Of a stretch of 64,000 bases of DNA, positions 6,102-25,620 are shown piece after piece (the first letter of the stretch is position 1; every line of letters starts with the position of its first letter). The stretch comes from Sedimentisphaerales bacterium (GTDB lineage Bacteria; Planctomycetota; Phycisphaerae; Sedimentisphaerales; SM23-30): positions 480,001-544,000 of the forward strand of contig CAXXFK010000028.1 in the NCBI GenBank assembly GCA_963663965.2. The letters are read 5' to 3'. The position numbers and the translations under genes are program-made. The notes under the pieces are model-generated. The model was not told the origin of the DNA. It searched no databases and saw only the letters and a list, made by a program, of their open reading frames with translations.

Positions 6102-9100
6102 TCAATCGTTATTCCAGCCGTCGATCACTTCATAAACCTGACCACCCATATTTTGCAAGGCGTTCCCCAGTTGAGTGGCGCTTTTTTTGTCGCGCTTTTC
6201 AATGGCCGCTTGCCACAGATTGAACTGGTTGACCACCGCCTGCCATAACGGCGCCGCATCGGTCTTCTGGGCAATCGGATGGTTGGACTCAATCGTCGCC
6301 TGAACCTGCTGACACAGCGCGTCAGCCGTCTCCCATTGCTCAGCCTCCACGGCATGTTGTAAACTCTCACATAGCGCGCCACAGGCCATAAAGACATGAT
6401 AAAGCTGTGACTGGGCCTGTTTGGATATCGCGGATGAACCAGATGTTGGCCCGGGTGTTTTTTTCAGGCGATCGATATCCATGCCCAGTCGTGTGCCCAG
6501 TTCCATCATCATCTCGCCCATCTGAATGGCACGCGCTTTATTGCGGGTCTTGATAATATCCTGCCAGATATTAAATTGCTTTGCGGCCTCTGACCAGGTG
6601 GCTCCGAATTCGGTAGTCTTGATGCCAGGCAGAATTTTATCGATTTCCAGCTGAATTTCTTCACAAAGTTGATCGGCCCGTTCCCAGTCATCCGCTTTTA
6701 CCGCATTTAAGGCGCTTTCGCTCCGGGTGCCGCAGGCGATAAAAGCCGCAAATAGCTTCTGGTAAAGTTGCTGCGGATCCGGAATCTTGGAAGTGGATGT
6801 CGGTTCAGCGGTCTTGAAGTCAGTATAAGCCCTGAGACCGGCTTTATGTAACTCACTGGAGATGGCGTTGATCAATTTATAAGGTTCCGGCCCTTCACAG
6901 GTCAGCAAAATCGTGGTCGGCTGACCTGGAATATGGATAAATTCACATTGGTATAAATGCCCTTCTTTATCTTTGTTCTGGATATAGGACCGGCTGCTTT
7001 CAACCGTGCCTTCCTGATTCTTCCAGCTGCGCACCCCTTCCGACATATAGGGGTAAGAGGTTGTCCGCGGTTCTTTGGATTCACTGTAACCGATCGTCTG
7101 GATAACTTTGCGACAGGCATTGCTCACCTCCTTATCTAGTTTGGAATCGTAGAGGATTATTTCAGTCCCTTTCACAAGATAGCCGCCGCTCAGAGCATTG
7201 GTTGCGGATGAGGTGGCGTTGCCAGGCTGACTGGTTCCCGTTGAAGAGGGGCCATTCGAAAGTTCCTTGAGCCGGGCCTGAAATTGAGGGGCTATTTCCT
7301 CCACCAGATCAAATAAGGATTCACTGATCGTTAACGCTTTGGCCATATCTCGTTTCTCAATAACACCCAGCCAGAGCCGCAGTTGGGTAGCTAACGTGTC
7401 GAATAGCGGCATATAACGGCTGTTCTCTGCGAGCGGCTTGTTGTCTTCCAGCAGGGTGATGAGTTGTTGACAGAGTTCGCCCGCCAGTTCCATCTCTCCC
7501 GCTTCCAGCGCCGCATGAATCGTTTTGCCTTTGAGCCGGCCGGCCATGAAAAGTTCGCAGATCTGGCGCTCTCCGGCGATTTCCGAAGCGGTGATACCCG
7601 AAGAGGGGGGAACATTTTGATTGCCGGTACGCTGTTCGATTACCTGCCGCAATTGAGTGCCGGCACTCTGCATGGCTTTGATCAGGGCCAGGGCCTGTTC
7701 TTTTTTCCCGGCGTTGATCAGGCCTGACACATCATCCATTTGTTCGGCCAGATTTTGGGCCATAGTCTCGATCGGTGTGCCTTTCACGGCGGCCAGCGCG
7801 GCGGGTACCCGTTTCTGGATCTGGCCCACCAGCATTAGCGCCGTTTCCATATCGCCCCGCTCCAGCCATTCATAAGCAGCTTGCGACAGCTCACCCACGA
7901 TTTCAAGGATACCGACTAATTCCGCAACATTAGAATAAGTGCTGCCGGCCGGATTCTGTGGTTTGCTGGTCATAGGATCATAATAAAACTCCCTGTCGGG
8001 ATATTGGCTCATAAACGCGCTGATATATTTACCCTGGTTAGCTACGCTAAACATGCTGGTATTCTCGACCAGCCAGCGATCATTGCCGGGTTTTAATGTC
8101 CAGCACATCGCGAACGGACTCTCGGCGCCGGGCTCCGTTACCTCAAACGGTTTGGATAAGACAAACGCTGCTTCATCATTCCAGTAGAGCTTGTCAAATC
8201 CGGGTAAACCCGTTAAGACAAACAACTTGGCGGCCATGTTCATCTCTTTGATATTGCTTTCGATATCATCGTATCCCGGCACACACCAACGGGCCAATTC
8301 CTCGGTGTTCGACTGCATACAGTTGTGGTACCAGGCTTTGATCGTGTTTTTCAACGCCGCCAGCACAGCCTCTCGTTGCGGCAGTTGAACAGGTCCGGAT
8401 TCCATTGGCCGCGTAGCATCAGCCGCAGCAGCTTTTTTTGCCGCGTCCTTTATCATCATTTCGAAGCCCGGACCAGTTTGGTCGAACATTTTGATGATCC
8501 GATGGGCCTTGTCATAATCGCCCTGCTTGAGGGCGGTGTCCATTTGGCGCACCATGCCGATGGCCGCTTCGATGGGCTGTTCGATCAGCGAGCCTTTGAT
8601 CTTCTGTGATAACTGCTCGACCGTGGGCATAAACGACTGCATGGTCATCTTCGCCATCTCGTAATCTTTGGCTTCCATCTGTTCATAGACCGCGCCAAAC
8701 AGAACCTTGAGCGGCTCGATCAGGTCAGCGGCATTCTTCAAATCGGGGCGGGTAACACTGACCGGTATGGTGGGGGGCTCAGGATTATCCAGTTCATTGA
8801 TCCAGGTCAGGCCATTCGGTTGTTGCCGGTTAAAACGATGGATCTCATCCAGGATGCCCTGGGGAGTTTCCAGATCGATGTCAACAATTTTCCAGCCGTT
8901 CAGCCGTTTCTCCAGTGTCCATACCATCATAACCGGCCCACCGTCTTTGGGATCGCCTTTGGGTATTTCCACAGAGAATGCCTGGGCATGAGCAGGAGTA
9001 TGCAAAATAGTATGAATTCCAAATCCCCAGTGTTTATTTTCCGGTTGGCCGAATAATTTCCGGAAATCATTCAAATCTCTGGATACCTGTGAATAATCGT

Positions 9101-12100
9101 TCGGATAAAACGCATTCAACCCCGATTCCTCATTCTTCTGACAAAGATCATACCATTGTTTCAATAGACTGTTAATAGCCTCAATATCCTGATCATCTGC
9201 CTGATTCATGCCAACCGGATAGTTGCCGGGAATTTCCCCAACGAAAGGATGGTCCTTTTCGAAACGCTCTATCCAACTTTCAATTTTATCTGGTGGCAGC
9301 CAGTCAATATCCCGTAGCAGCCATTGCTGACCGTCATATCGAAAACTCAAGCCCAGTTGCCATTCCCGGCCATCCTTTTCACGCAAGCCTTGCGTGACCG
9401 TGATGGCATTCTCATCATCCGCAATGACTTTACCGAGGGTGATATTATCTACAAAAGCAACGTCAAAAAGCTTGCCTAACGACATATCTCCAATCTGGTC
9501 GGGCCTGATGTATTGGCTGATGGCATTCAGATCTTTGGACTTGATGGCGTCAATCAGTGCCTTGGCTGTTTTTTGGGCCGCAACCGCTTTCTCACTGACA
9601 CGCTGCCCGGCGGAAATTTCACCCCGCATGATCGACTCCACCGTGCGGTCCGAAAGCGGTACGCTTACCTGGCTTTGCAGACTGTCGGCAATACCTTGAG
9701 CTTCCGCCGCAGTAAAATTGCCGCTGATTGAGATCGCATCTTCGATCCGTGTCATAATCATCGGAGCCGTTACCACTTTGCCATCGATAACCGCCGCCAG
9801 ATTCCGCCGGATATGACCGGCTGTCAGTTCAGAAAAGAGTTGTTTGCCCACGGCATCCAGCCCGCATCGAATACAGGGCGGCTGGGTGCGGGCATCAACT
9901 CTGGCATAGGTCAGGTGCCAGCCCTGCTCTTTTCGCATAACACCTTTGCCCGAGGTAAATAGTAGCACATAACGTTTTTCCTCATTGTCGATGGTGACTG
10001 CCTCTGATCCAATGGTCACTTTATCAGACACTTCAAACCAGCCCATCGGCGGCTGATGGTAATCCCGGTAAGCATCAAAATCGGCTTTAAATCGTTCGAT
10101 GGCTTCGGATGCGATATGGTCTTTCGCCGGATCCACTACCAGCAAAAAGGCCAGGCCCGACAGATCGCCCGAGCGGGCGATATCTGGTTTTTCTTCAAAG
10201 ACCATTCCTTTGATCAGCGACAGGGCCATTTTCTCGATATCATCCCGTGAGAATCGGCCGGTGATCATCGCCCGCTGACCGATACGAGCCTGTACGATCG
10301 GGGTGGAAACCACTTTATCGTCAATGAGTATCGCCATGGCGCGCCCGATATTCGATCCGCTCAAATCCCCCAGCAATTGAGCGCCTTTTTCATTCATCTC
10401 GATCAGTATCGCCGGCATGCTGCGCTGATCCTGGGTAACATTCACATTTGTCAGCGACCAGCCTTGTTCAGGAATCATACTTTTATTGGGGGTCGCCCAG
10501 AGTAATGCGTAGAGTTTGCCGTTACTTTCATGGATAATGAGGTTGGGGGCATTGAGTGTTTTTTCCGCGACCTCAAACCAACCCATCCTGCCATCCCCTG
10601 AGTAGGGTTTAAACTGATCATTCAGATGATTGATTTCCTCATCTGTCAGTTCATTCGAGTGAACGGCCGCTCGAAAGGCCAGTTGACCTGTTTTGAGAGC
10701 TAATGCATTGTCATGTTCTGATGGTTTTAGTTGGGTAATTAATACCTGGGCCATCTCCGCTACCTGATCCAGTGAATCCACACGTTCCTGGCCGGCATTG
10801 AGCCACCGTCCGTCTATCATCTCCAGCCGGCGTACATCGATCGGCCGTTCAATCGGTTGAGAGGAATTCTCAGGTAGTAGTCGGGCGGCCACCAGCGCCT
10901 GATGACTATCGATAATATAGACTCGCAGGATGCGGGCGTTCTGCAGGGTTTGGGCCCAACTCGGATCGATGGTTTGGTCGATCTGGGGCATAGAATCGGC
11001 CAGTTTCGGGATGCTGACACGTTTTAGTGACTCAGCCTTACCCGATGCGCAGACGGCATTAATTACCGCGTAGGCAGCTTGGGGAGTTTTTAAGTTTTCC
11101 TGTTTAAATTGAGACACATTTCGATTGACGTCGTATATCGTCAATTGCTCGGTTTCCAGAATCACCTGTTTCTTTGCCTGCGCCATCGGCAGAACGCATG
11201 CGAACATCACCAGCGCCGCGATCAGGGCCGAAGCCACCTGTAAAGGACGCCATTTCCAGGTCTTCTTCTCCAGCCATTGCAAGCGTACCAGCAACCGGTT
11301 GGAATCTTCAAACAATCCCAGCAAGCCCATTCCCGGCTCCACTGGCTGGGCCAGCAGTCTTCGGGCCGTTTCCAGCAGGGTTTCGCGATATTGTGGGGTT
11401 TTATCCTTAAGGACCCGCGCTACCGTGGCGTCACAGCAGACTTCTCGCAGATGTTGCAGTTGACGGCCTACCATCCAAACCAGCGGATTAAACCAGTAAC
11501 ACAACTGCACCAGCATATAGCCGGCATGAATCAGCAAATCGCCCCGTTTGATATGGGCCAGCTCATGCAAAAGATGATGACGCAGATCGCTGTCGGACAG
11601 ATCCTTTAAACTGCTCGCCGGCATCACCAGCACCGGCCGGAAAATCCCGAATACTGCCGGACAGACCACACTATCCGACAAAATAATCTTAACCGGTCTC
11701 CGTAATCCCAGTTGGGCGGCACAGGCGGCCACTGTCTGCCGGAAATTGTCGGGTAACACATCCGGTTCCTGGCGGGCCATCCCTGTTTGTAAGCGATGAA
11801 CGCGTATCAATAACCAAAAACCCAATCCGATAATGCCGGCCAGCCAACCGGCCATTGTCCAGGATTGCCAGTTCAACTGGGTCGTAATAACTGGTTTTAC
11901 GGAATTAGTTTTAACTTGTGGTTGAATAGGTTCCTGAACAGGCCCGGAATTTATCGGGGCGGGCGCTGTTGCCGGAATAATCGGCTCATTAGAGGGAATG
12001 ACTGAGGTTGGCGATTCTGAAATGGATTGGGTATCTGGTTGGGATTCCGGCTGAATAAACTGCATGACCAGCGGTTCCAGCTTTGCTGTCATGCTGGTAT

Positions 12101-12305
12101 TCAATGAAAATGCCGGGGTTAAAACCAGTTTTAATAATATCGCCAGCCAGATGACGTATCGGATCTGGGGCCAGGCCCATTTACGTAGCAATGCGTCCAG
12201 CGCCGATACAATGATCACCAGTGCGATCAGTTGCCACAACATCGCCGTTTGCCAGATCCACCAGTTTTCCGCGATGTGATTGATACGATCTATTATATTT
12301 CCCAT
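6102..12305 (-). CDS. BlaR1/MecR1-type M56 metallopeptidase sensor with very large multi-domain periplasmic region
   Basis: N-terminal TM helices, PAVFGIFRP, HELAHIKRGD, WFNPLVW, REVCCDA; two SecD-P1-head-like domains, NTF2-like segments and five helical repeats; ATG 12305 with GGAG RBS. Confidence 0.9.
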   Translation of the reverse strand: MGNIIDRINHIAENWWIWQTAMLWQLIALVIIVSALDALLRKWAWPQIRYVIWLAILLKLVLTPAFSLNTSMTAKLEPLVMQFIQPESQPDTQSISESPTSVIPSNEPIIPATAPAPINSGPVQEPIQPQVKTNSVKPVITTQLNWQSWTMAGWLAGIIGLGFWLLIRVHRLQTGMARQEPDVLPDNFRQTVAACAAQLGLRRPVKIILSDSVVCPAVFGIFRPVLVMPASSLKDLSDSDLRHHLLHELAHIKRGDLLIHAGYMLVQLCYWFNPLVWMVGRQLQHLREVCCDATVARVLKDKTPQYRETLLETARRLLAQPVEPGMGLLGLFEDSNRLLVRLQWLEKKTWKWRPLQVASALIAALVMFACVLPMAQAKKQVILETEQLTIYDVNRNVSQFKQENLKTPQAAYAVINAVCASGKAESLKRVSIPKLADSMPQIDQTIDPSWAQTLQNARILRVYIIDSHQALVAARLLPENSSQPIERPIDVRRLEMIDGRWLNAGQERVDSLDQVAEMAQVLITQLKPSEHDNALALKTGQLAFRAAVHSNELTDEEINHLNDQFKPYSGDGRMGWFEVAEKTLNAPNLIIHESNGKLYALLWATPNKSMIPEQGWSLTNVNVTQDQRSMPAILIEMNEKGAQLLGDLSGSNIGRAMAILIDDKVVSTPIVQARIGQRAMITGRFSRDDIEKMALSLIKGMVFEEKPDIARSGDLSGLAFLLVVDPAKDHIASEAIERFKADFDAYRDYHQPPMGWFEVSDKVTIGSEAVTIDNEEKRYVLLFTSGKGVMRKEQGWHLTYARVDARTQPPCIRCGLDAVGKQLFSELTAGHIRRNLAAVIDGKVVTAPMIMTRIEDAISISGNFTAAEAQGIADSLQSQVSVPLSDRTVESIMRGEISAGQRVSEKAVAAQKTAKALIDAIKSKDLNAISQYIRPDQIGDMSLGKLFDVAFVDNITLGKVIADDENAITVTQGLREKDGREWQLGLSFRYDGQQWLLRDIDWLPPDKIESWIERFEKDHPFVGEIPGNYPVGMNQADDQDIEAINSLLKQWYDLCQKNEESGLNAFYPNDYSQVSRDLNDFRKLFGQPENKHWGFGIHTILHTPAHAQAFSVEIPKGDPKDGGPVMMVWTLEKRLNGWKIVDIDLETPQGILDEIHRFNRQQPNGLTWINELDNPEPPTIPVSVTRPDLKNAADLIEPLKVLFGAVYEQMEAKDYEMAKMTMQSFMPTVEQLSQKIKGSLIEQPIEAAIGMVRQMDTALKQGDYDKAHRIIKMFDQTGPGFEMMIKDAAKKAAAADATRPMESGPVQLPQREAVLAALKNTIKAWYHNCMQSNTEELARWCVPGYDDIESNIKEMNMAAKLFVLTGLPGFDKLYWNDEAAFVLSKPFEVTEPGAESPFAMCWTLKPGNDRWLVENTSMFSVANQGKYISAFMSQYPDREFYYDPMTSKPQNPAGSTYSNVAELVGILEIVGELSQAAYEWLERGDMETALMLVGQIQKRVPAALAAVKGTPIETMAQNLAEQMDDVSGLINAGKKEQALALIKAMQSAGTQLRQVIEQRTGNQNVPPSSGITASEIAGERQICELFMAGRLKGKTIHAALEAGEMELAGELCQQLITLLEDNKPLAENSRYMPLFDTLATQLRLWLGVIEKRDMAKALTISESLFDLVEEIAPQFQARLKELSNGPSSTGTSQPGNATSSATNALSGGYLVKGTEIILYDSKLDKEVSNACRKVIQTIGYSESKEPRTTSYPYMSEGVRSWKNQEGTVESSRSYIQNKDKEGHLYQCEFIHIPGQPTTILLTCEGPEPYKLINAISSELHKAGLRAYTDFKTAEPTSTSKIPDPQQLYQKLFAAFIACGTRSESALNAVKADDWERADQLCEEIQLEIDKILPGIKTTEFGATWSEAAKQFNIWQDIIKTRNKARAIQMGEMMMELGTRLGMDIDRLKKTPGPTSGSSAISKQAQSQLYHVFMACGALCESLQHAVEAEQWETADALCQQVQATIESNHPIAQKTDAAPLWQAVVNQFNLWQAAIEKRDKKSATQLGNALQNMGGQVYEVIDGWNND

Positions 12306-12509
12306 GATGAGCTCCAATTTTTATTAAGTTGTTATTTTCCTGTTTTATTATTGCTTGATAATATCTTGTTTATTATTAGCGTTTATTCGTCCCGATCAAT
12401 CGGGAGTCGTGGTTCGCTTCCGTGCTCCGGTGCTGCCGGTTTGTCTATTTTTCTTTGTGGCTTGGTGGCTTTGTGTGAAATTCTTTTCTTTGGTTCCGGT
12501 ACTGCCGGC

Positions 12510-12896
12510 TCAGGTTTCCGTTTCCTTTTTGTCCTCATTCCGGGCCAGAATTTCGCTTAATACTTTTCGGTCTGCCTTTGACAGAGACCGGTCTTCCACC
12601 ATGAAGTTTAACATCGGTTCCAGTGCGCCCTGAAACACCTGGTCGATCAGCGTCTTTAAGGCGCTGCGGCGTGCCTGATGTTGTTCCAGCACCGGGGCAT
12701 AGACACTGGTATTGCCCCGCTTGCGCTCTGTCAACGCTCCCTTATCTACCAGCCGTGTCAACATCGTTTTAATCGTGGTATAGGCCCATTCATTTTCTTC
12801 CGGTAGATTCTCCTGGATCTCCCGGGCCGTGGCCGGATGTTTATCCCACAAGGCGTTCATGATTTGCCATTCCGAATCCGATAGTTTCATATTCAT
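12510..12896 (-). CDS. BlaI/MecI/CopY family transcriptional repressor
   Basis: KLSDSEWQIMNALW, WAYTTIKTMLTRLVDKG; ATG at 12896 with AGGAG RBS; upstream of the M56 gene. Confidence 0.93.
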   Translation of the reverse strand: MNMKLSDSEWQIMNALWDKHPATAREIQENLPEENEWAYTTIKTMLTRLVDKGALTERKRGNTSVYAPVLEQHQARRSALKTLIDQVFQGALEPMLNFMVEDRSLSKADRKVLSEILARNEDKKETET

Positions 12897-12927
12897 GATC
12901 TTGCTCCTGGTTTCAGGGTCACCATCT

Positions 12928-12971
12928 ACTACATCTGTAATAAATAATACTACAAATGTAGAATTTGTCAA
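12928..12971 (-). promoter_or_regulatory. blaI promoter with two BlaI-type TACA-NN-TGTA operators
   Basis: TACATCTGTA (12930-12939) and TACAAATGTA (12951-12960); minus-strand TTGACA (12971-12966) and TATTAT (12949-12944), 16-bp spacer. Confidence 0.85.
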
Positions 12972-15311: not shown

Positions 15312-15340
15312 TTGAAAGTTATATGCTTGTCTGATATAAT
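15312..15340 (+). promoter_or_regulatory. Sigma70-type promoter facing an ORF-free region
   Basis: TTGAAA-17 bp-TATAAT with extended -10 (TGn). Confidence 0.6.
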
Positions 15341-15498: not shown

Positions 15499-15863
15499 AA
15501 ACAAACCCACTTTATGGTATGCCGCGAATGACTCCTGCTGATAAGCCGGCTTACCCCCAGATCGAAACGAACCCAATTTTTAAAAAAACGTCGTTAAGAT
15601 ATTTGTAAGCAATCAGTTATATCACGTTATTAATATCAATACTAATGATACAGTTTCCAACTGAAAATGCCCGCTTGGCCGTAATATAAGTTCTACACGG
15701 TAAACATTGATCTTGCGAGCGATCAGGAATTTTCAAACCCACAGGGTTTAGTGTATAGATACTTCAATAGGTGCTCCTCATTGTATAACGGTTGCTGACT
15801 CATGGTCTAAACGAACCCAATCTAAAAAAAAGTCCACTTAACTTATTTGTTTAATTATGGTTA
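15499..15863 (+). repeat. Three copies of a 55-bp fixed-spacing element (15499-15553, 15565-15619, 15809-15863)
   Basis: AAAC(G/A)AACCCA(A/C)-N18-T(A/G)A-N19-TTA, spacers counted in each copy. Confidence 0.8.
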
Positions 15864-24040: not shown

Positions 24041-24064
24041 CAGCGTGGGCGATGCCCACCCTAC
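24041..24064 (-). repeat. GTAG-type REP element
   Basis: Minus strand reads GTAG-GGTGGGC-atc-GCCCAC-gctg: a GTAG tetranucleotide followed by a palindrome. Confidence 0.65.
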
Positions 24065-24073
24065 CGTGATAAG

Positions 24074-24859
24074 TTAGTAGTGGCGGCATTGGAGGGTGGT
24101 GTCGGTTGGGGTGATTTGGGATGGTTTCGTTTGGGTTAATGGTGATAAGTCGTTGCTATAATTGGTTTTATAGTCGAAATTGTTGGTGTTGGGTTCGTTT
24201 GGCGTTGAGGGGTAGTTTCGATCATATTGGTTGGGAGTTGGGTTCCATGGATCGGGTTGGGATTCGCAGGGCTGGGAGTTGGGATTGCGGTGGTTATCAG
24301 TAGAAAACCTGGTTGAGTTGTTTATTGGTAAGTTGTTGTTATTGTTTGTGTTATGGTCGAATTTGCCGACTTTGGGTTCGTTTGGCATTGGTGGGGTTTC
24401 GGGTTGTTGGTCTGGTTCGGGGGTGGCGTTGGGGTCGCACTGAATGGCGGGGGTGATCTGGTAGCCGGCGTCGAAGAGGATGTTTTTGCAATTGTCGATA
24501 ATCTGCTGGTATTCTTTGTCATTGGGCGGGCCTTCGGGGATGAGGTCTTTGATGGGATCGGTGATTTTTATGAATTGCTGGATGAGTTGGGTGGTAGCGC
24601 GGCGGGCGGTGATGGTGTTGTCGGAGCGGGACTGGACGACGAGGCGTTGGAGGGCCTGGTGGCCGGCGCGGGTGGCGCGGAGTTTGAAGTCGCGGCGGTC
24701 GTAGGCCATGAGGCCGGCCAGTTCGCAATGGTAGGGGTAGGTGTCGATGATGTATTGGTGTTGGCGGCGGGTGGTGTTGATGGTGGCGAGGAAAATGTCA
24801 TCGATTTCGGGGCGGTGGTAGTATTGGGCACGGGCGAGAATTTGCATGGAACGATTCAT
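24074..24859 (-). CDS. Hypothetical protein with Asn/Pro-rich C-terminus encoded by 55-bp repeat elements
   Basis: 261-aa ORF with GAGGTGA RBS; C-terminal PNEP motifs coincide with the element copies. Confidence 0.6.
   Translation of the reverse strand: MNRSMQILARAQYYHRPEIDDIFLATINTTRRQHQYIIDTYPYHCELAGLMAYDRRDFKLRATRAGHQALQRLVVQSRSDNTITARRATTQLIQQFIKITDPIKDLIPEGPPNDKEYQQIIDNCKNILFDAGYQITPAIQCDPNATPEPDQQPETPPMPNEPKVGKFDHNTNNNNNLPINNSTRFSTDNHRNPNSQPCESQPDPWNPTPNQYDRNYPSTPNEPNTNNFDYKTNYSNDLSPLTQTKPSQITPTDTTLQCRHY
24146..24383 (-). repeat. Two further copies of the 55-bp element (24146-24200, 24329-24383)
   Basis: Minus strand AAACGAACCCAA-N18-TAA-N19-TTA in both; an extra half-box AAACGAAACCA at 24122-24132. 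Confidence 0.8.
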
Positions 24860-25047
24860 GGTTTCACCTCTTTTTCTGGAGACCTAATTAATAAAAAAAC
24901 CATTCTGAGTTTGACCGTTGGTGGCCGACTGTTGGGATTATAGGTTTTTGTTTGTTAAAAGTCAAAATAAAAATAATATTAAATACAAAAAATACATAAT
25001 ATAAGAAATTTTCACCATGAAGATACCATGAAGGGAAGAGGAAGAAT

Positions 25048-25620
25048 TAACGGCCGGTTTATCCGCAGATGGACGCAGATAAAAATAAGTTAAGATATTG
25101 AAATATAAGAAGATATAACCACGGAAAAACGCGGAAAGACACGGAAGAAAAGCAGGTGGCTGCGCCACGATTTAAATGGGTTATTACCACAGAGGTCAGG
25201 AGGGCACAGAGGATGAGGAGCAGGGAAGAATCAAAGCTTTTTAGACAGGATCACAGGATCAACAGGATTTAAGAAAAAGGGAATTCAAATAAAATATAAC
25301 GGGTGGTTTAACCGTGGATAAACGCAGATAAAAATTGAGTTAAATCATTAAAATAAAATAAGATAGAACCACGGAATACACGGAACACACGGAAGAAATC
25401 AGGGATAAGTTCAAGAAATATATCAAAAAGGTGAAAAAGAGTGGCTGGGACACGGGGTAATTTTTTTAAAGGCGGGGGTTTACCACAGAGGTTAGGAGGA
25501 CACAGAGGATCATGGCAGGGGGCTATTAAGGATAAGAGAAGAAAAATGCTTTTTAGACAGGATCACAGGATTGACAGGATTAAGAGAGAGGATTTGGGAT
25601 TTAATATAACGGCCGGATTA
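25048..25620 (+). repeat. Compound tandem repeat (about 2.1 units of 250-310 bp) built from iterated short motifs
   Basis: Same order in both units: (CGCAGAT)n, AACC(ACGGAA)x3, CCACAGAG..CACAGAG, TTTTAG(ACAGGAT)x3; units start at about 25048, 25297 and 25607. Confidence 0.85.

Follow-up and report, generated by a model that had tools for sequence, protein, structure and literature searches.

A 55-bp DNA unit (box-N18-TAA-N19-TTA) recurs in clusters in the genome of a Sedimentisphaerales bacterium. On balance we lean towards the reading that it combines two adjacent sites, a box for a cassette-encoded protein and a palindromic IHF-type site, which would together act as the signal of selfish cassettes. 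The unit itself is real. Judged from the sequences, its IHF-type half appears well supported and the link between box and protein moderately so. Clustering of the ORFs beside the units yields two multicopy families, A and B.

The window is the whole stretch of 64,000 nucleotides that was analysed. Five copies of the unit with constant geometry had been reported by a sequence-only reading of this DNA, and the pattern indeed matches the window five times at these positions vs 0 matches in 100 dinucleotide shuffles (Table 1). As had also been stated, three of the five copies end in CAA-N4-TTA (those at 15565, 24146 and 24329). The claim that the copies are no recent duplicates holds for the three plus-strand units, which have no close paralogue (best-partner identity 0.39-0.52 in a 160-base comparison), but not for the two minus-strand units. 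These are not independent; both lie inside one multicopy ORF, and their best paralogues are 0.69 and 0.80 identical over 160 bases. The two clusters have opposite orientations relative to each other. The plus-strand cluster (15499-15863) is ORF-less; its neighbours on the two sides are a DUF4136 gene and a UPF0004/radical-SAM/TRAM gene, each encoded by the minus strand. The region around the promoter match upstream of it contains four promoter-like matches, equal to the number in shuffles. The window taken by itself shows no enrichment of TAA-N19-TTA (20 vs 16 and 14).

Table 1. Units, promoter-like matches, repeat and cassette ORF in the window.
Feature	Position	Strand	Remark
Unit 1, degenerate (box end CCAC; TGA replaces TAA)	15499..15553	+	IHF-type half 15529-15553
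Unit 2	15565..15619	+	Box 15565-15576, symmetric IHF-type site 15595-15619
Unit 3	15809..15863	+	Box 15809-15820, symmetric IHF-type site 15839-15863
Unit 4, within ORF B	24146..24200	-	IHF-type site 24146-24170
Unit 5, within ORF B	24329..24383	-	IHF-type site 24329-24353
Sigma-70-like promoter match (11/12), directed into the ORF-less cluster as in cassettes	15312..15340	+	Pattern match
Separate ~105-bp multicopy repeat between units 2 and 3, outside the unit	15645..15751	+	59 genome BLAST hits
Family-B cassette ORF, 261 aa, orphan	24074..24859	-	Units 4 and 5 in 3' half
Promoter-like TTGACT-N17-TATAAT of the family-B cassette	24937..24965	-	Bases past the -10 hexamer common to family-A cassettes

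Several further elements were observed in the window. The repeat between units 2 and 3 is MITE-like, with copies about 80-88% identical and ends near ATAC...GTAT; of 54 copies scored against GC skew, 41 point the same way. Arrays of ~10-bp-phased short repeats are found at 25050-25600 (-), ahead of the family-B promoter. Comparable blocks are located before most copies of family B and were also seen in unrelated contigs from metagenomes. Directly after the family-B stop codon a GTAG-headed hairpin is located (24041-24064, -), which we take to be REP-like; hairpins resembling it occur inside family-A leaders. At 6102-12971 (-) a BlaI-type repressor gene is followed by the gene for a 2071-aa protein with BlaR1 M56 peptidase and SecDF P1 head domains.

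Genome-wide (7.24 Mb, 42 contigs, 94.6% complete, 5.4% contamination) 119 exact units were found in same-strand clusters. Among 364 box matches TAA is present at offset 30 in 148 and TTA at offset 52 in 137, and the enrichment proposed for these offsets is thereby borne out. At neighbouring offsets (six positions each side) neither triplet exceeds 22, except for a TAA peak of 81 at offset 53 that is owing to overlap with the TTA itself. The spacer lengths are equally constant, since the pair (18,19) occurs 119 times vs 7 for the next commonest pair (288 stricter boxes). The word AAACGAACCCAA occurs 136 times vs 1.3 expected from a 5th-order Markov model. In total 296 boxes form 140 clusters, and neighbouring boxes are on the same strand in 154 of 156 cases. 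By context, 48 exact units belong to A clusters, 31 to B clusters, 11 to A-like clusters without ORF and 29 to ORF-less clusters (n=119).

The unit consists of two modules with separate distributions, the box and TAA-N19-TTA. A palindromic stem was not found in it; the complementary parts are TAA and TTA only, and the spacers vary freely. A known IS end or REP family is not indicated for the unit: the window has no Rfam match, the unit is no hairpin repeat and the 13 delimited family-A copies lack terminal inverted repeats. In a search of the open-access literature neither the box nor the cassette nor the symmetric site was found described. The same literature gave nothing on an HGGxSTG motif.

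TAA-N19-TTA is a site used genome-wide by the host and about twofold enriched also far from boxes. Non-coding sequence at a distance above 150 bases from the boxes contains 1570 such sites vs 709-874 for 13 other spacings (13 to 26), and the reverse-order control shows no spacing peak there. In unique sequence, with repeats removed, the count is 873 vs 396-446, an excess of about 450 sites. Counted from the dyad, the excess unique sites have T at -4 and A at +4 with a frequency of 0.74 each and are A/T-rich in the centre; units of ORF-less clusters (n=58) have the same bases at these positions in 76% and 83%, respectively. The refined pattern TAAN4WTN7AWN4TTA is enriched over its reversed control in five of five genomes (465/104, 215/145, 275/84, 55/13, 75/10), in G007 weakly (215/145). 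Two of the enriched genomes, G004 and G029, hold 0-1 boxes. A pattern one base longer is enriched in none of the same five (92/107, 142/148, 97/102, 12/11, 17/22).

For comparison with IHF we take one kink of its site to lie at the AA of WATCAA. A mirrored IHF site would then read YAA-N4-TT-N7-AA-N4-TTR, which corresponds to TAA-N19-TTA with TT/AA at -5/-4 and +4/+5. TTR is found ten to twelve bases from the dyad, and the kink steps, placed as assumed, are nine bases apart. This resembles the E. coli site, where TTR stands four bases 3' of WATCAA and kinks occur at two steps separated by nine bases (PMC1874591). The one-sided WATCAA core is barely enriched (184 vs 131 and 155 for shifted controls).

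A single HU/IHF gene (PF00216) was detected in each of six genomes, and in all six proteins (that of the host has 120 aa) R-x-E-x-R aligns with R42/E44/R46 of IHF-beta. This triad of IHF-beta reads the TTR element. It is described as IHF-beta-specific and required for site discrimination (10.1101/057489). One such gene per genome, carrying the triad, makes a homodimer likely at TAA-N19-TTA, and the site would be symmetric because a homodimer puts the triad on both sides. TAA-N19-TTA is hence very probably an IHF-type site, and the single host IHF-beta-like protein likely binds it as a homodimer. The TTA-to-dyad spacing, T/A at both kink positions and the triad are in common with E. coli IHF. 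In contrast, the host has only one gene, the site is a symmetric TAA...TTA, and the highest NCBIfam score that the host protein reaches, 62.7 bits for IHF-beta, stays below the cut-off of about 120.

The cassettes themselves are best defined for family A. It comprises a 279-aa ORF with 26 intact copies and one truncated copy and a DNA identity of 89-96%. The copies are not recent because synonymous divergence amounts to 0.24. Both ORF families are under purifying selection, with pN/pS of 0.095 at pS 0.24 for family A (26 copies) and 0.15 for family B (first 76 codons, 12 copies). A lone box is located at nucleotide 533 in 26 of 26 intact family-A ORFs, and every one of these ORFs neighbours a cluster of units. 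Where delimited (13 copies), the cassette is 1.7-2.5 kb long. It starts with a 5' motif (conserved in 16 of 26). Next come a promoter with the signature TTGAC/TATAAT and a leader in which hairpins and box-IHF units form a mosaic; a ribosome-binding site and the ORF follow. The 3' end is reached about 85 bases past the ORF, finishing near TGCGC in 21 of 26. Many family-A cassettes show an operator-like inverted repeat after the 5' motif, about 180-150 bases upstream of the -10 hexamer. The sense strand of family A and B cassettes is strongly A/C-rich genome-wide, with 60% C and 8% T at third codon positions of family A.

Family B has 15 genome loci, whole or broken, and homologues were found in this genome only. 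Similarity to family A was not detectable (hhalign E 0.66). The family-B ORF usually contains two units in its 3' half, and the family as a whole carries the 31 exact units mentioned above. The promoter signature and the downstream modules are common to both cassette types.

ORF-less clusters keep TAA in 44 and TTA in 39 of 118 strict boxes at a spacer identity of just 0.36-0.37. The idea that the spacing is selected and the copies are not recently duplicated stands for these clusters, but it does not stand for most exact units, as duplicated cassettes hold 90 of the 119. Of 41 ORF-less clusters, 16 are preceded on their own strand by a near-consensus promoter (≥11/12) vs 4, 2 and 0 in three control placements. 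There is no fixed orientation to the flanking genes (14, 14, 10 and 3 of 41).

Such retention is also what a domesticated organising or regulatory system might produce. Family-A protein and IHF-type homodimer would loop or silence about 90 dispersed loci, with the copies being kept for the host and not spreading. Box, TAA, TTA and spacing are conserved in the ORF-less clusters while the spacers have drifted, and 26 of 27 family-A ORFs are intact in spite of the synonymous divergence; both agree with this reading. So do homologues from one family of genomes (f41). These six single-copy homologues of family A (L162-L167) have no box in 9 kb and lack the N-terminal motif; mostly they are found in a conserved neighbourhood beside what we take to be acp/fabZ/fabF-like genes. 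They are possibly a domesticated form. However, the missing orientation to flanking genes and the cassette-type promoter kept at many ORF-less clusters argue against a domesticated system. Moreover the occurrence is patchy, with the exact unit in 0 of 24 same-family genomes and a box count of at most 8 among these relatives, none of which is congeneric. We regard this explanation as unlikely and keep to selfish cassettes as the preferred one.

Homologues of family A are numerous: 969 were obtained by a word-based search and 52,899 cluster representatives (50% identity, E up to 0.001) by a full profile search. No meaningful Pfam, NCBIfam or PHROG family was assigned to family A, family B or 120 family members, and an Atlas look-up for family A returned hypothetical-protein clusters only. 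The homologous loci inspected number 83 and comprise the best 80 of 538 hits in genomes together with three viral loci. They stem from Acidobacteriota, Planctomycetota, Alphaproteobacteria and others, and loci bearing the unit include Planctomycetota and Phycisphaerae records. With a loose pattern, a same-strand box is found near the gene in 52 of these 83 loci (best 80 of 538 hits and 3 viral) vs 16 on the other strand. Its position peaks shortly after the conserved core and shortly before the start codon. A stricter pattern gave a forward box after the core in 37 of the 83 and an inverted one in 14. Of 119 homologues, 29 contain box-derived peptides in their C-terminal half vs 1 in the N-terminal half. 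The loci L094, L100, L106, L152 (G035), L026 and L032 show the order box, IHF-type site, inverted box and are more cosB-like than the host genome. At L059:2501-3200, titled Candidatus Pelagibacter ubique HIMB058, a family-A homologue with downstream box was seen, which is unexpected in a streamlined genome.

The association of gene and box is also seen in a phylum survey of 301 genomes. A family-A gene was detected in 24 of them, and the three box-rich genomes (at least 30 boxes, namely 156, 42 and 32) are all among these (Fisher p 4e-4, the genomes being related and not independent). None of the 277 genomes without the gene reaches five boxes. On the other hand, fewer than five boxes were counted in 18 of the 24 genomes with the gene, which speaks against a tight link. 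G208 was left out of the box-rich genomes since those three of its six boxes that were examined sit in a coding repeat. A further genome, G030, combines 60 boxes with a family-A gene. Based on this linkage, the box is probably bound by family A.

The length N19 is conserved across lineages, and the spacer between box and TAA is lineage-specific. The latter measures 18 in the present genome, 21 in most units of G321, 23 in most of G035 and 23-24 in G030, whereby the loci of G321 and G035 were preselected for N19 and those of G030 are unbiased (24 of 26 units with N19). Metagenome units have a box-to-TAA spacer of 21-24 in at least 74 of 128 among the matches listed. The suggestion that helical spacing is under selection is in line with a constant spacing inside a lineage but not with the half-turn shift between lineages. 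Given the spacers 18, 21, 23 and 24, we rejected a helical phase of box and IHF site common to all lineages. A second box follows within 65 bases past TTA in 66 of 80 metagenome units, and a family-A gene is located within 0.3-1 kb flanks at 2 of 73 metagenome loci with peak spacers, both counted among the matches listed. The latter count likewise speaks against a tight link of box and gene.

Alternatively, the box might be read by a conserved host factor of replication, repair or transcription, and the ORFs would be passengers profiting from the site. The box hardly differs between phyla, at an identity of 30-45% for the family-A protein, the unrelated family B uses the same box-IHF unit, and most units have no adjoining family-A gene. 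All of this would be expected for a host factor, as would the location of 62 of 80 clusters on the C-rich strand. This orientation is, however, barely above the controls of 66% (permuted words) and 76% (41/54, unrelated repeat), and a replichore effect is not supported; a lagging-strand bias of the clusters was dropped for this reason. Furthermore, most genomes of the phylum contain 0-2 boxes, which is hard to reconcile with a conserved reader. We consider a host factor quite unlikely, and the cassette protein remains our candidate for binding the box.

The AlphaFold2 model of family A is all-helical (mean pLDDT 73.6). Two short N-terminal helices lie around the conserved basic motif, and a long hairpin of helices spans about 73-176; the tail is proline-rich and modelled with low confidence. 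H37, R91 and Y154 are near-invariant. Foldseek against the PDB gave no hit with E under 0.001 and a viral fold search gave none, the N-terminal 48 residues being barely covered. The wide fold search in VIA, with the same coverage of these residues, returned generic helical hairpins (best Z 8.2 over 79 residues). A PDB sequence search with family A yielded nothing relevant. Three terminase-small-subunit PHROGs match one of 120 family members each, weakly (E 0.002-0.006), and we treat them as no more than a lead.

The latter matches and the basic N-terminus with helical hairpin are compatible with a packaging parasite, i.e. a small-terminase mimic that would divert the terminase of a helper phage or GTA to cassette DNA by means of a cosB-like box-IHF-box arrangement. 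The second box close to TTA in the listed metagenome units points in the same direction. In lambda cosB the IHF site I1 is surrounded by the TerS sites R3, R2 and R1, with R3 and R2 flanking it (PMC4856287). The unit has in common with cosB the repeated boxes beside or around an IHF-type site and a small DNA-binding-like protein. Unlike cosB it is chromosomal and multicopy and not located on phages, and no winged-helix fold, TerL partner or nicking site was detected. A location in phage genomes beside terminase was not found in annotated phages, IMG/VR or viral pattern matches: family A has no match in 50,697 annotated phages and only three loci in IMG/VR, and the viral pattern matches show a flat, chance-like spacer distribution with 0 of 105 units beside a family-A gene. 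In plasmids there is one match. Packaging would also leave the dozens of dispersed sites in one chromosome unexplained. We thus rate a packaging parasite as very unlikely.

Two other known systems were compared with the preferred reading of selfish cassettes. In P1 parS, clusters of BoxA and BoxB are split by an IHF site and located directly after parB (PMC10999674). The boxes and IHF site at the 3' end of the likely binder's gene are similar. In contrast to parS, the cassettes have neither similarity to ParA/ParB nor such a neighbour, and there are about 90 loci per chromosome. A ParB-family match was not obtained for A or B, and adjacent parAB are not seen, as no large family besides A and B recurs among the neighbours. 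The second comparison concerns IS elements, MITEs and REP-type repeats that bear IHF sites, e.g. Correia elements (PMC10969869). Here the dispersed, multicopy and intergenic location, ORF-less derivatives, promoters and the IHF site are shared. However, terminal inverted repeats and target duplication are absent from the delimited cassettes, no transposase was recognised, their ORF encodes a non-enzymatic-looking helical protein, and the unit is no hairpin repeat. By analogy, the cassette system can be described as cosB/parS-like in layout and MITE-like in distribution, but the defining features of none were found. The architecture of box plus IHF site itself is of a known kind.

Signs of transposition were sought in the 13 of 26 family-A copies for which both ends could be placed approximately. 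Direct repeats at the ends measure 4.2 bases vs 4.2 in mismatched pairs, giving no target duplication, and inverted repeats 5.0 vs 5.9 bases. A transposase fold for family A was found neither in profile searches nor in fold searches, which gave generic hairpins only. The low-depth contigs of three contig-only runs contain no piece across a cassette.

Possible traces of recombination are seen among the copies. The share of incompatible site pairs along the family-A ORF is 0.59 under 30 bases and 0.76-0.79 beyond. This is consistent with recombination among copies, to which homoplasy or assembly mixing could contribute. Between -36 and +78 the points at which the best partner switches are evenly spread and do not pile up in the unit (~25 clear two-parent elements of 160, hence low power). 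A role of the unit in recombination or partition, as had been put forward from the window, is not supported: no crossover hotspot was found, and among the ORFs within 900 bases of units (clustered, not individually annotated) the only families to recur are A and B, apart from a few small groups. The unit could still be a site-specific recombination site and family A an unusual recombinase using the conserved His, Arg and Tyr (H37, R91, Y154). Direct-repeat clusters with 154 of 156 neighbours on the same strand and the mosaic modules of the cassettes would suit this. Yet switch points are even across the unit, and over the full length of the ORF incompatible pairs stay at 0.76-0.79, as would suit general recombination, homoplasy or mixing in the assembly. 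A recombinase is highly improbable in our view.

Returning to selfish cassettes, we propose the following scenario. The small helical protein of the multicopy cassettes likely binds the 12-13-bp box, and the single IHF-beta-like protein of the host, as a homodimer, likely wraps TAA-N19-TTA into a U-turn. The family-A protein, with its basic N-terminal motif and helical hairpin, would assemble on boxes next to the IHF bend. Similar to cosB or parS, the assembled complex may mark the cassette as its own substrate. It would recruit a host or helper enzyme that copies the cassette; we assume recruitment because no catalytic fold was found. Recombination between copies would shuffle the cassette modules. 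The cluster 15499-15863 could be an old ORF-less derivative that is still bound in trans. In several homologous loci a box directly precedes the start codon, which would permit autoregulation, too. That the box-IHF complex has a role in cassette spread is conceivable, although we hold it for somewhat less probable than its absence. The origin of new cassette copies is the weakest step of the model. The original notion of a sequence-specific site coupled to a bending protein persists in modified form: an IHF-type site is present genome-wide and a candidate box-binding family is linked to the box, with binding itself being inferred.

Tentatively, and with doubts prevailing, these elements may represent widespread, undescribed and transposase-free selfish cassettes. 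They would be built from a small-protein family (~53,000 clusters, no Pfam), a box conserved across bacterial phyla that this family recognises and an IHF-bent complex and be copied by a host or helper machine, with ORF-less cassettes and cassettes of unrelated ORFs mobilised in trans. They would offer a candidate route for multiplying genes without a recognisable transposase. If true, this reading would moreover reveal which symmetric sequence a homodimeric IHF recognises, TAA-N19-TTA being the binding site predicted from genomes alone for the single IHF-beta-like protein of this order. Taken together, a very large unannotated protein family appears tied to a specific DNA word and to a testable partner.
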